From Actinomycetota bacterium (GTDB lineage Bacteria; Actinomycetota; Acidimicrobiia; Acidimicrobiales; Aldehydirespiratoraceae), in contig JBCBYI010000001.1 of NCBI GenBank assembly GCA_039815945.1, positions 1 through 48,457 on the forward strand: a stretch of 48,457 bases of DNA. The letters run 5' to 3'. Both the position numbers and the translations under genes were made by a program. Below are positions 40,683-44,158 of this stretch, piece by piece (positions within the stretch are counted from its first letter, which is position 1; the number at the start of each line of letters is the position of its first letter). The notes beneath the pieces were generated by a model. The model was not told where the DNA came from and ran no database searches. It worked only from the letters and a program-made list of their open reading frames with translations.

Positions 40683-41417
40683 ATGGCGGTCAACCGGTTG
40701 ATGCAACGCATGTTGTCGTGGCGCTACCGCGGCGACATCCCCGCCGACTGGCGGCCGTACCTGGCCGAGCTCGACTTCGTCGGCACGCTCGATGACGACG
40801 AGACGCAGCGCCTCGTCCAGCTCGCCCGCATGTTCGAAGCGGTCGTGCGCTTCGACGGCCGCGAGGGCATCGATGTCGACGAACGCAAGATCCGCCTCAC
40901 CGCACTCCAGGCGTGCCGGCTGATCCTCGAACTCGGCTACGAGCCGTACCGGTACGTCCATCGGGTCACGTTCGTGCCGGGCACGTTTCACATGGAGACC
41001 CGGCAGGGCAAGGTCCGGGCGAACGGTGCCGCCGACTCCGGCGGCCATGTGGCGCTCTCGTGGACCGAGACGGTCGCCGGGATGTACGACGGCGACGGCC
41101 GCAACGTCGTGTACCACGAGTTCGCCCACGTCCTCGACGGCTACGACGGCTTCGTCGACGGGCGTCCGAGCGTTGACGAACCGGGCCGCTGGCGAAGAAT
41201 CGTCGGGTCGTCGTACGAGACCCATCGCCGCAGCCGCAAGAAGAAGGCGCTGATCGACGCCTACGGCAAGACCAGCGAGGTCGAGTTCTTCGCCGAGATC
41301 GTCGAGGTCTTCTTCGAACGCCCCGAAGAGCTCCACGAGGAGCAACCCGACCTGTACGACGTGCTCGCCGACTACTTCGACCAACGCCCGGGCTGGATCG
41401 ATGGAGCACCGACATGA
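40683..41417 (+). CDS. MtfA-like zinc metallopeptidase (M90 family)
   Basis: 244 aa from ATG 40683 (GAGGA 7 nt upstream). VVYHEFAHVLDG (HExxH) and the C-terminal EVEFFAEIVEVFFERPEEL..PDLYDVLADYF signature typical of MtfA/YeeI. Confidence 0.8.
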   Translation: MAVNRLMQRMLSWRYRGDIPADWRPYLAELDFVGTLDDDETQRLVQLARMFEAVVRFDGREGIDVDERKIRLTALQACRLILELGYEPYRYVHRVTFVPGTFHMETRQGKVRANGAADSGGHVALSWTETVAGMYDGDGRNVVYHEFAHVLDGYDGFVDGRPSVDEPGRWRRIVGSSYETHRRSRKKKALIDAYGKTSEVEFFAEIVEVFFERPEELHEEQPDLYDVLADYFDQRPGWIDGAPT

Positions 41418-42010
41418 GCGCCGTCGATCCCTGGGACGCCGCCGCCGACGGCTGGGACGACGATCCCGCCGCCCGGGCCTACGCCGGTGCCGCCTTCGAG
41501 TCGCTCGTGGCCGTGCTCGACGGCTTCGGCCGCTCGCTTCTCGGGCTCCGCGTCTGCGACTTCGGCTGCGGCACCGGCCTGCTCACCGAGCGTTTGGTCA
41601 CCGCCGGCGTCGCGTCGGTCGATGCGGTCGACACCTCCGACGCCATGCTCGCCGAGCTCCACGCGAAGGCCGACCGGCTCGGCTGGACGAACGTCCGCTC
41701 ATCGGCGGAGATCCCCACGTCACCCGGCCGCCACGATCTGGTCGTGTGCTCCTCAGTGCTGGCGTTCGTGCCCGATCACCCGGCCACGGTCGCCCGACTC
41801 GTCGAGCTCCTGGCCCCCGGCGGCGTGCTCATTCAGTGGGACTGGCAACTCGATCCCGACGAGGCCGAGCCGTACGGCCTCACCACTGAGGCGATCCAGA
41901 CCGCACTCCGCACCGCCGGCCTCCGCGATGTCGAGGTGGGCGTCGGCTTCGAGCTGCCCTTCGGGGACATGGTGATGCGCCCGCTGATGGGCGTCGGCCG
42001 GAAGGTCTGA
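41414..42010 (+). CDS. class I SAM-dependent methyltransferase
   Basis: 198 aa. Motif I VCDFGCGTGLLT, post-I VDAVDTSDAML and LLAPGGVL. ATGA overlap with the upstream gene. Confidence 0.8.
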   Translation: MSAVDPWDAAADGWDDDPAARAYAGAAFESLVAVLDGFGRSLLGLRVCDFGCGTGLLTERLVTAGVASVDAVDTSDAMLAELHAKADRLGWTNVRSSAEIPTSPGRHDLVVCSSVLAFVPDHPATVARLVELLAPGGVLIQWDWQLDPDEAEPYGLTTEAIQTALRTAGLRDVEVGVGFELPFGDMVMRPLMGVGRKV

Positions 42011-42013
42011 CGC

Positions 42014-43171
42014 TCAGTCGGTCGGCTGGTTGCGCCGCTCCACCATCCGGGTGAAGTGGTGGGCGAAGTCCATCGTGTCGTCGGGGTTCGCATCACCCCC
42101 GAACGGCCAGTCGGGTTTCGCCGTCGGCAACTCGAACGAGAACGACTGGCTCTGCGGGATCCGGCACGCGAGCGCGTCGCACGCCTGCCATCGCACTCGG
42201 CCGGTGATCGTGAGCGACTCGATCTTGGGCGACGACGTGTTGACGATCGGCAGCCGGAACTCGACCGTGCCGTCATGGACGGGGAACACCTCGTCGGTGC
42301 CGTCGAGGTGATGGTCGTGTGCGGCAGGGCCGACCATCGCCCGCAGGCCGATCTGGTCGGTGTCGTCGAACTCGATCGTGAACGGCACCATCCCCTCGGG
42401 GGCCGGATCGGCGTAGACGTGCTGGCCCTCGGGGATCGCCAGCCGCACCACGACGTCGTGTTTCACGATGGCGGCGATGTGGTCACCGTCGTAGCGGATC
42501 TCGGCGGTGACCTCGCCGTCGGCCGGGGCGGGAGCGCCCACCAGCTCGACAGTCTCACCCTGCGCTGCCCGGATCAGCTCGGCGGAGTTGGCCCGCACGC
42601 CGAGGTGCTCGTCGAAGAACTTGGCGATGATCACGCCCTCGGCGTCGAGCACGTACGTCCCCGGGAACGGGATGCCGGCGTAGGGGTGATCGTCGGGATC
42701 GACCAGCGTGTTGCGGATGCCCAGCGCGTCGATGATCTCGCTGTCGGGGTCACTCAAGAGCGGGAACGTGATGCCCTTGTCGGCGGCGAACGCCACGAGC
42801 GCGTCGGGCTCGTCGTACGACAGGGCGTAGAGCGCAACCCCGGCCGCCTCGAAGGCCTCAGCGTGCTGTTGCAGCTCGACCAGCTGCGTGCGACACGGCG
42901 GTCACCAGACCGCCGATCGATAGACGACGAACGCCGTCGGGCGACCAGCCCGGTCGGCCTCGATGTCGACCATGCGCCCGGTGTGGTCGGGCGCCACGAC
43001 TGGTGGCAACCGCTCCCCCACCTCGGGGCCGGTCGGGAACCAGCCGACCGGATTCGAACGGGCACTCGCGCCCGGCTTGAGCGGCCCGAGGTTGCCGAGG
43101 GCATCGCGCCACCAGCCGTTCTCGAGCTGCTCGCCTCGCGTGTCGACCTCGATGTGCGGCGTCTCGCTCAT
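42014..43171 (-). CDS. thioredoxin-fold (AhpC/TSA-redoxin, Prx-like) oxidoreductase fused to a DsbD-N-like domain; in-frame TGA (42902-42904) at the redox motif W-U-P-P-C, candidate selenocysteine (alternative: pseudogene)
   Basis: Tracked ORFs 42902..43171 and 42014..42796 are in one frame, and I read no other stop between them. The translation across the junction is ...RPTAFVVYRSAVW-TGA-PPCRTQLVELQQHAEAFEAAGVALYALSYDEPDALVAFAADKGITFPLLSDPD..., a single redoxin domain. The C-terminal part ends with RWQACDALACRIP, which is DsbD-alpha-like. Confidence 0.6.
42862..42897 (-). promoter_or_regulatory. SECIS-like RNA stem-loop immediately 3' of the in-frame UGA
   Basis: Numbering from the U of UGA as 1. 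Lower stem C8-U12 pairs with G39-G43. An internal loop follows. The upper 6-bp stem is G18CAGCU23 with A29GCUGC34. The apical loop is G24GUCG28. The apical part corresponds to 42871-42887 (gcagctcgaccagctgc on the + strand). Confidence 0.5.
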
Positions 43172-43192: not shown

Positions 43193-43501
43193 TCAGGCCG
43201 GGACGGAATCTCGTTCTCGCCGGCCGCCGTTGCGGGCGATGGCGACGAGCACGATCACGACCCGGACAACCGCCGCGACGATGAGCGTTCCCAGGAGCAG
43301 GCCCCACAGCTGCCGTTCGAAGCCCTCGACCGGGGTGTTGCACTGCGGCGGATCCGACGAGTCGACGTCGACGATCAGTGGACCCTCGCAGATCGGCTCG
43401 CCGTCGGTCGTCAAGAAGAGCGCCGCCGTCACCACGACGAAGACCACGAGCCAGACGACGAACAGCCGCAGCGCGTCACGGACGATCGGCCGAGTCCCCA
43501 T
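43193..43501 (-). CDS. small 2-TM membrane protein with two Cys in the connecting loop
   Basis: 102 aa. TM1 LRLFVVWLVVFVVVTAALFL, loop ...EPICEGPLIVDVDSSDPPQCNTP... and TM2 LWGLLLGTLIVAAVVRVVIVLVAIA. High third-position GC. I recognise no family. Confidence 0.5.
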   Translation of the reverse strand: MGTRPIVRDALRLFVVWLVVFVVVTAALFLTTDGEPICEGPLIVDVDSSDPPQCNTPVEGFERQLWGLLLGTLIVAAVVRVVIVLVAIARNGGRRERDSVPA

Positions 43502-43525: not shown

Positions 43526-44158
43526 TCAGGCCTTCGGGCGCCGGGCGAGCACCACGCCTTTGTCGAGTGGACGGCCGCCGTCCGGGGCCGGCGCCGCGCC
43601 GTGCTGCACGCCGACGAACCCGGCGGCACTGAGGAGCTCGCCGATCGTGGCGGGATCGAACTCGTAGGCGGTGGCCACCTGATGATCGAACGGCGTGCCG
43701 TGCGCAGCCGGTTCCCGCGACGCGAAGAAGAACAGTACGACGGGAGCACCTGACGCGAGGACGCGTTCCCATTCTGCGAAGACGGCCGGCAGCGCATCGG
43801 GCGCCAGATGGATGATCGAGTAGCGGGCGAAGATCCCACTGAACGACGACGACGCCGCGTCGAGCGCGGTCAGGTCGTCGACGAAGAACGCCAGCTGCGG
43901 GAACGCCCGCTGGGCCTGCTCGATCATTCCGGGCGACGCATCGATGCCGAAGGCCGGGAGACCCGCCCGAACGAGCGCGTCGACGCCGTGCCCGGGTCCG
44001 CAACCGACGTCGACGACCGGCCCCATTACTGGCTCGACGAGATCCACGAACCGGGCCAGCCAGCCCTTGGCGTCGGCGTCGTTCTCGAGGTCGTCGAGGA
44101 ACAACGACGCGTACCGCTCTGCGACCACGTCGTACGCGGCGGCGACGTCGTCGGACAT
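43526..44158 (-). CDS. class I SAM-dependent methyltransferase
   Basis: 210 aa. Motif I VVDVGCGPGHG, post-I FGIDASPGMIEQA and VLASGAPVVL. Confidence 0.8.
   Translation of the reverse strand: MSDDVAAAYDVVAERYASLFLDDLENDADAKGWLARFVDLVEPVMGPVVDVGCGPGHGVDALVRAGLPAFGIDASPGMIEQAQRAFPQLAFFVDDLTALDAASSSFSGIFARYSIIHLAPDALPAVFAEWERVLASGAPVVLFFFASREPAAHGTPFDHQVATAYEFDPATIGELLSAAGFVGVQHGAAPAPDGGRPLDKGVVLARRPKA

Follow-up and report, generated by a model that had tools for sequence, protein, structure and literature searches.

A conserved hairpin at a fixed distance from an in-frame UGA: the probable SECIS element of a Prx-like UxxC selenoprotein gene

The question raised by the locus

The minus strand of contig JBCBYI010000001.1 from an Actinomycetota assembly (GCA_039815945.1; positions 1 to 48,457, the whole of this stretch being called the window) holds a long reading frame broken by a single TGA. 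Is this codon the end of a gene, or does it specify selenocysteine (Sec, U), and is the hairpin that follows it the corresponding selenocysteine insertion sequence (SECIS)? A preliminary description had drawn a two-part hairpin at 42862-42897, and every base of the claimed pairs is present on the minus strand. With the U of the UGA taken as +1 (window 42904, minus strand, so that nt n is window 42905-n), the upper stem pairs G18-U23 (42887-42882) perfectly with A29-C34 (42876-42871) over 6 bp, and the lower helix joins C8-U12 (42897-42893) to G39-G43 (42866-42862), one G-U pair included. The strand around the TGA reads ...GCG GTC TGG TGA CCG CCG TGT CGC ACG CAG CTG GTC GAG CTG CAA CAG CAC GCT...

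In the reading favoured here, to which a probability of about 0.9 is given, the hairpin from nt +18 to +34 (42887-42871, minus strand) is the SECIS of a peroxiredoxin-like (Prx-like) U-x-x-C selenoprotein gene. The earlier proposal of a bacterial SECIS serving Sec at this UGA is supported by covariation, by frozen synonymous sites, by agreement with the published consensus and by loss of the hairpin in two of three cysteine (Cys) homologues.

The interrupted gene and its product

Translation, Pfam, GC content at third codon positions (GC3) and tblastn together delimit the predicted selenoprotein gene, of 385 codons including the UGA, at 42014-43171 (minus strand). From 43171 to 42014 the sequence translates as one frame, of which the TGA at 42904-42902 is the sole interruption. 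The codon stands at residue 90 within the motif RSAVW-U-PPC, and its reading as Sec is suggested by a TGA at the same codon in 160 loci and by Cys at this place in the homologues P0009, P0022 and P0065. When Cys is substituted at the TGA, Pfam finds an AhpC/TSA domain that spans it (PF00578, E=1.9e-25, residues 51-182) and a DsbD_N domain beyond it (PF11412, E=5.9e-7, residues 237-346), while matches in NCBIfam, to PrxQ/BCP, ResA and 'SelL-related redox protein', are all sub-threshold. The GC3 values on the two sides of the TGA, 0.88 and 0.92, are typical of real genes in this 69% GC contig. With the TGA in frame and a single PF00578 match across it, the hairpin lies entirely within coding sequence, as had been claimed.

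The same description took the coding sequence of the hairpin for a helix, which holds in the AlphaFold model of the Cys homologue P0022 (mean predicted local distance difference test score 82, above 90 around Cys98), where Cys98 directly precedes helix 99-110, PLCMTQLVELQQ. The nearest solved folds in structure comparison are the BCP/PrxQ peroxiredoxins and the ResA-type thiol-disulfide oxidoreductases. On this model, Sec would occupy the nucleophilic first position of UxxC, at the N-terminal end of helix alpha-1 in a thioredoxin fold.

A family with UGA at one codon

The family was assembled from a genome scan with one genome per species, which gave 80 loci, and a scan of metagenomes with the three Cys proteins as queries, which gave another 80. 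From these were drawn 73 distinct genome sequences, 142 unique Sec sequences and 158 unique coding sequences, the last with a median pairwise identity of about 42%. In all 80 genome loci a TGA stands at this one codon, in the context RSAVW-TGA-PPCR, and the tblastn matches cross it in 80 of 80; among the metagenome loci it is found in 79, the remaining one being a Cys contig already known. Hosts of the genome loci include Acidimicrobiia (Microthrix, Ilumatobacter, Ca. Poriferisodalis), Pseudomonadales, Azotimanducaceae, Thermoanaerobaculia, other Acidobacteriota, Myxococcota and others; the family reaches the Gammaproteobacteria and covers several phyla overall. In the genome scan the contig's nearest relative is Ca. 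Microthrix, at 89% identity.

The distance from UGA to hairpin is ungapped in all 160 Sec loci, with no indel from the TGA to nt +60. The 14-nt spacer (nt 4-17, 42888-42901, minus strand) encodes P-P-C-R-T, and it includes the codon of the resolving Cys (UGU, 42893-42895); its third codon positions vary freely while its length stays fixed.

Conservation and covariation of the upper stem

The upper stem (nt 18-23/29-34) is kept in all 160 TGA loci. Among the 73 genome sequences 99.5% of its cells are paired, RNAalifold predicts it as the sole structure, and the hairpin is part of the local minimum free energy (MFE) fold of nt 14-40 for 141 of the 142 unique Sec sequences. Compensatory changes among TGA-containing homologues, which the preliminary description had asked for, were found at two pairs joining the 5' arm G18CAGCU23 to the 3' arm A29GCUGC34. 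Over the 73 sequences pair 18-34 is G-C in 50 and C-G in 22, and the C-G state links a synonymous ACG-to-ACC change with the replacement of Gln by Glu. Pair 21-31 is G-C in 65, A-U in 4 and G-U in 4, the A-U state being spread over three protein subfamilies (L048; L055, L062 and L073; L107). Pair 22-30 has one U-G case. On a neighbour-joining tree built from the protein alignment with the hairpin region masked, pair 21-31 changes at least 10 times, always between pairing states, and pair 18-34 at least 5 times; the flanking conserved codons (S, A, V, P, P, C) undergo 30-53 synonymous changes.

A CUU or CUA codon for the 3' Leu breaks pair 19-33. All sequences with these codons have the C-G-closed triloop described below, and they refold in a shifted register (C17-G37, G18-C36, C19-G35) with a 2-nt bulge. 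A rule that CUU never occurs in Sec forms, drawn from the first 81 loci, was refuted by 17 sequences of the metagenome set.

Codon choice within the hairpin

The peptide encoded by the hairpin leaves its synonymous positions free, yet these are nearly fixed. Over the 158 coding sequences Gln is encoded by CAG in 152 and CAA in 5, as against 114:43 for conserved Gln elsewhere in the same genes, and Glu by GAG in 153 and GAA in none, as against 107:37 for conserved Glu elsewhere and a ratio of 2233:1232 over all Glu codons outside the hairpin in these genes. The 3' Leu is likewise restricted (CUG 128, CUU 17, UUG 12, CUA 1), compared with a Leu codon entropy of about 2 bits elsewhere. The preference for GAG and CAG holds even in genomes of 48-55% GC. 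When the peptide of each sequence was re-encoded with the codon usage of its own gene, all six pairs formed in 11% of such resamplings; they form in 88% of the sequences observed. Together with the 153:0 count for GAG, this bears out the earlier argument that amino-acid conservation alone would not demand the palindrome.

The apical loop

The loop G24-G25-U26-C27-G28 (42877-42881, minus strand) is the presumed site of SelB contact. G25 is invariant (158/158), while nt 26 is U, in a Val codon, in 105 sequences and G, in a Gly codon, in 53. The GU of the loop had been set in parallel with the key bases of fdhF; this stands for G25 and only in part for U26, which is replaced by G in about one third of the homologues. 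In the 73 sequences that have CUG for the Leu just before it, the loop Val is always encoded by GUC, and in the same sequences a control Val two codons before Sec is written GUG 47, GUC 18, GUU 4 and GUA 4 times.

The loop takes two forms. In one, the GGUCG pentaloop sits on the 6-bp stem; in the other, where the Leu codon is CUC, an extra C24-G28 pair closes a G-[U/G]-N triloop. A large marine subfamily (within L084-L163, for example L100, L110 and L141) carries the motif W-U-PPC-W-TQLGELRD, in which the loop Val has become Gly (U26 to G26), and shows a C-G-closed GGN triloop. Seventeen of its members have the CUU Leu codon and a register-shifted stem with the 2-nt bulge U33 C34.

The lower helix

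The two-part architecture of the original drawing did not survive comparison: the lower helix and the internal loop are specific to the window sequence and a few close relatives. The 5' arm (C8-U12, 42893-42897) and the 3' arm (G39-G43, 42862-42866, both minus strand) are not conserved, with 44% of their cells paired among the 73 genome sequences. In folds constrained to keep the upper stem, nt 4-17 and 35-50 on its two sides add no more stability than shuffled flanks do (z +0.46 in the window, mean +0.15 over 142 sequences), and some lower pairing occurs in most sequences because they are GC-rich. The lower helix was rejected as a conserved element on these two grounds, and it probably lies outside the functional element.

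Sec and Cys forms

In a protein search most relatives in public databases proved to be pieces of about 285 aa starting directly behind the motif. Three were full-length Cys homologues, P0009 (CPAS), P0022 (CPLC) and P0065 (CPIC), whose Cys aligns with the TGA; in P0009 the resolving Cys has been lost as well. A second protein search, with an N-terminal Cys-containing query, gave 55 matches, all of them N-terminal fragments ending at the Trp before Sec, and no further Cys form. Sec forms outnumber Cys forms by about 160 loci to 3 among the 164 loci of the family, despite a search seeded with Cys proteins. In thioredoxin-fold selenoprotein families generally the balance of Sec and Cys is the reverse.

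The hairpin had been expected to be absent from Cys homologues, and this is so in two of the three: L083 (GAC CUU; L083/L087) is mismatched at two pairs and practically unstructured locally (-2.9 kcal/mol), and in L082 (CUU, G24 loop) the hairpin is gone from the local fold. L081 departs from the expectation, a point to which the weighing of the evidence returns. Decay of the hairpin in Cys forms fits relaxation after the loss of Sec, but three sequences are too few to lend this any weight.

A separate case is P0117 (617 aa, from a JGI metagenome), a tandem duplication of the entire unit of Prx-like and DsbD_N domains. Its first copy begins right after the presumed UGA (MQLVELQ...), and the active site of the second (SADWDFYSKWQLLDLQ) is without Cys or Sec.

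Comparison with known SECIS elements and selenoproteins

The bacterial SECIS consensus (Zhang and Gladyshev 2005 model, summarised in PMC13188914, Fig. 2A) calls for a 4-16 bp stem with a 3-9 nt loop. At least one of the first two loop nucleotides is G, and the next is usually G or U; the prevailing pattern is N1-G-[G|U]-N-N2, in which N1 pairs with N2. The spacing from UGA to loop is 16-37 nt and the MFE -7.5 kcal/mol or lower (PMC13188914). In the window the loop is GGUCG (5 nt) and the stem 6 bp, 20 nt separate the loop from the UGA, and the energy is -8.9 kcal/mol for the 17-nt hairpin alone and -15.4 kcal/mol for nt 4-46. Its homologues have loops of 3 or 5 nt on stems of mostly 5-8 bp, at 20 or 21 nt throughout. 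Pattern scoring, one of the checks originally proposed, thus places the window sequence within the published consensus on all four counts, as it does 137 of the 142 unique Sec sequences; the other five fall short in energy only (nt 14-40 folded). Like the elements of that model, the hairpin lies in coding sequence directly 3' of the Sec-UGA, and nothing essential sets it apart from them. The C24-G25-[U/G]-N-G28 variants reproduce the published loop exactly.

Comparison with the SECIS of E. coli fdhF is closer in some respects than in others. The fdhF loop had been described as containing GGUC, with G23 and U24 as key bases, and genome sequence and folding bear this out: the sequence TGACACGGCCCATCGGTTGCAGGTCTGCACCAATCGGTCGGT is present in fdhF of 5419 of 5426 E. 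coli genomes and folds with the loop G22-G23-U24-C25. The equivalent GU was also placed correctly in the window, 2 nt further from the UGA than in fdhF. The E. coli element is a 17-nt stem-loop (nt 15-31), 11 nt from the UGA, in which SelB contacts the bulged U17, with G23 and U24 in the loop, and its lower region contributes only about 25% (PMC8659212). Shared features are a 17-nt upper stem-loop in coding sequence, GGUC in the loop with its GU dinucleotide exposed, and a lower helix that is expendable or poorly conserved. The loop differs in having 5 nt (GGUCG) instead of 4, and in the exchange of its U for G in 53 of 158 family members. As a candidate SECIS, the element would work like that of fdhF, and it fits the general bacterial model; it is not fdhF-type in the strict sense.

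The protein belongs to the 'Prx-like thiol:disulfide oxidoreductase' class (PF00578, UxxC), a long-established group of predicted selenoproteins (PMC13188914) that appears as 'Prx-like 1' in the Global Ocean Sampling (GOS) and Sargasso Sea selenoproteomes (PMC2398784). PF00578 across the UGA, the motif U-P-P-C and an aligned Cys in homologues were all found here. The likeness extends to the AhpC/TSA fold, to UxxC with Sec first and to a largely marine or uncultured distribution, and both are predicted selenoproteins without biochemical characterisation. Two additions set the present proteins apart from Prx-like 1: some 50 conserved residues at the N-terminus, and at the C-terminus a DsbD_N-like domain that contains an invariant pair of Cys residues of its own. 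The proportions differ too. Here Cys forms are very rare (3 vs 160 loci); for Prx-like 1, Cys homologues were far more numerous than Sec homologues in the GOS survey (PMC2398784). No description of the DsbD_N fusion or of the family motif was found in the literature searched.

Weighing the evidence

Several results weigh against a SECIS, or at least deprive the case of support that might have been expected. The support for SECIS function is computational throughout. No selA, selB, selD or tRNA-Sec was found on the 48-kb contig. The 61-nt fold of 42850-42910, proposed as the first check, does contain the upper hairpin (-20 kcal/mol), and it is no more stable than chance (z = +0.81; 164 of 200 shuffles fold equally well). 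For nt 1-45 (z = -0.44 vs shuffles) the MFE structure is an alternative fold, at -16.4 vs -15.4 kcal/mol for the SECIS-type fold (nt 4-46). Simplified SECIS rules are satisfied after 141 of 1063 TGA triplets in the window (about 13%), and Rfam (release 15) has no match at the gathering threshold in the window. The Cys form L081 retains the hairpin, with one G-U pair and the altered loop GGUGG, and n = 3 is too few for the Cys contrast as a whole to carry weight. The peptide TQLVELQ is conserved in the Cys forms too, so part of the conservation is at the protein level. Fisher tests of the hairpin against all Glu and Gln codons of the same genes (p = 5e-29 and 1e-16) are inflated by relatedness, because the homologues share descent, and the tree-based counts are the fairer measure. 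Compared with fdhF, finally, the stem begins 14 nt after the UGA and not 11, GU lies at +25/+26 and not +23/+24, and the window stem is without a bulged U on its 5' arm, only some variants having a bulge, on the 3' arm.

On a single sequence, then, the observation of the hairpin is correct yet not discriminating. Folding of one sequence was set aside as evidence, the z-scores being ordinary and the MFE fold shifting with the chosen boundaries; at 69% GC it is uninformative. The alternative fold pairs UGACC (nt 1-5, 42900-42904) with the loop GGUCG (nt 24-28, 42877-42881, both minus strand), and a counterpart exists in E. coli fdhF, where the GUC of the loop is complementary to the GAC of UGAC. 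This pairing is probably incidental, since it is impossible in the C24 loop variants of the family. A permissive Rfam search (E up to 10, 42700-43050) gave two sub-threshold matches, mir-3569 and che1, both upstream of the UGA and both put down to chance; the former, to an animal microRNA family, at 42937-42991 (minus strand; 27 bits vs a gathering threshold of 50, E=0.002 in a 351-nt search), is almost certainly a chance GC-rich hairpin within coding sequence.

What the single sequence leaves undecided is whether the hairpin could be an accidental by-product of a conserved peptide (QL...ELQ) and GC-rich preferred codons, with no function at the RNA level. Such an origin is made conceivable by the self-complementarity of CAGCUG, by the conservation of TQLVELQ in Cys homologues, of which L081 still forms the hairpin, and by a fold that is ordinary for its composition, comparable hairpins following 13% of window TGAs. 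It would nevertheless have to explain why resampled codons give all six pairs in just 11% of trials when 88% is observed, why GAG (153:0) and CAG (152:5) prevail even at 48-55% genome GC, why a Val near by is written with four codons but the loop Val, in 73 of 73 sequences, with GUC alone, and why a double compensatory change couples a non-synonymous Q-to-E replacement to a synonymous ACG-to-ACC change; it is considered very unlikely. The loop also bears on the possibility that the hairpin drives SelB-independent read-through of the UGA, by near-cognate Trp or Cys, or a folding-related ribosome pause. Stable downstream structures can stimulate stop-codon read-through elsewhere, and the Sec machinery of the host is seen through one 48-kb contig only. 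Against this, it is the sequence of the loop that is conserved (G25 invariant, nt 26 G or U, GGUC as in fdhF) and not merely stability, a signature of recognition by protein that matches the SelB-dependent consensus, and the UGA stands at the catalytic position of UxxC in PF00578, a recognised selenoprotein class; an explanation of this kind is still harder to credit.

The least credible alternative is that the TGA is a true stop, so that two genes meet here, one for about 90 aa and one for a DsbD-domain protein, with the hairpin serving termination-reinitiation coupling, mRNA stability or attenuation. Gene callers do split the locus and public annotation follows the split, with dozens of N-terminal fragments (83-109 aa) and C-terminal fragments (about 285 aa) in the databases. 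A single AhpC/TSA domain crosses the TGA, however, which in full-length homologues is matched by the catalytic Cys of a CxxC motif; neither frame nor spacing varies over 160 loci from several phyla; the C-terminal 'genes' are without a conserved start codon, their predicted starts differing between homologues; and no U-run follows the hairpin.

Proposed mechanism

Because all four features of the consensus are present, the standard SECIS mechanism may be taken to apply to the favoured reading, in which the hairpin is the SECIS of this gene. The steps are modelled on E. coli and Moorella, by analogy with which the host genome is presumed to encode selA, selB, selC and selD, SelB to bind the hairpin and Sec to be incorporated. 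When the UGA occupies the A site, the stretch from nt 1 to about nt 15 would be inside the mRNA channel of the ribosome, so that the lower helix and the UGACC:GGUCG pairing would both be melted, and the 17-nt hairpin would be positioned just outside the channel entrance. There SelB, loaded with GTP and Sec-tRNA(Sec), would attach through its C-terminal winged-helix domain to the apical loop, with its invariant G followed by U or G. Tethered in this way, it would compete with release factor 2 and bring Sec-tRNA(Sec) to the A site, and Sec would become the first residue of the redox motif U-P-P-C, at the N-terminal end of helix alpha-1 in the thioredoxin fold. As the nucleotides of the hairpin also encode T-Q-L-V-E-L-Q of this helix, RNA and protein constrain each other.

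Annotation and significance

The deposited annotation of the contig contains P0003, a 212-aa C-terminal piece named 'protein-disulfide reductase DsbD domain-containing protein'. Public gene calls split the family at the UGA (for example P0003, P0001 and P0121-P0175), and none is named a selenoprotein; the N-terminal fragments stop at the Trp (83-109 aa), and the C-terminal fragments, of about 285 aa, have inconsistent start sites. Split annotation of hundreds of relatives hides the catalytic Sec together with a whole thioredoxin-fold domain.

The understanding of Sec decoding is left unchanged, the mechanism being that of the textbook. The alignment of 142 sequences at constant spacing shows the tolerated positions of a well-sampled natural SECIS. 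It is usable for a family-specific covariance model, and could predict recognition by non-enterobacterial SelB, namely of a G that never varies with G or U after it, in a hairpin lacking the bulged U. It is suggested tentatively, and with more doubt than confidence, that the gene defines an undescribed subfamily: a Prx-like UxxC domain joined to a DsbD_N-like domain, near-obligately Sec-dependent, present in several phyla, systematically split in annotation, and with two interconvertible solutions for its SECIS loop. If so, its SECIS would amount to a rare natural 'mutational scan' of GGUCG pentaloop vs C-G-closed G[U/G]N triloop.

Other features of the protein and the neighbourhood

Outside the active site, the protein has a Cys pair in its DsbD_N-like domain, C331/C336 (WQACDALAC; codons at 42164-42181, minus strand), located by Pfam and invariant in the homologue alignment, which is likely to form a second redox centre within the same protein. 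Residues 1-50 (43022-43171, minus strand) are hydrophilic and conserved, homologue tblastn matches beginning at residues 3-8, and the N-terminus has no obvious signal peptide. DsbD_N domains are periplasmic as a rule.

The contig is a housekeeping stretch of an Acidimicrobiia-type metagenome-assembled genome. Its genes include metK, coaBC, gmk, pyrF, carAB, pyrR, efp, aroB, aroE and mltG, and further alaS, rarA, aspS, hisS, relA, secD, yajC, tgt, queA and ruvB; neither a tRNA nor any sel gene was found over its 48 kb. The genes for queA, a methyltransferase, a small membrane protein and the selenoprotein follow one another head to tail in the same reading frame, with gaps of 21-24 nt and TGA stops. 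Three other in-frame TGAs have coding signal on both sides; each appears to close one gene in the ordinary way, with another gene beginning after it in that frame. Those at 43193-43195 and 43526-43528 (minus strand) have an ATG start shortly after them and, no homology evidence for read-through being seen, look like normal stops; the TGA at 26806-26804 is the end of aspS.

Genes for S-adenosylmethionine-dependent methyltransferases flank the selenoprotein gene on both sides, at 41414-42010 (plus strand) and 43526-44158 (minus strand), and the top NCBIfam match of both is the DVU_1556 family. The gene at 41414-42010 also has weak sub-threshold matches to arsenite-methyltransferase selenoprotein models. 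A methyltransferase is found downstream of the Cys homologue in L083 as well.

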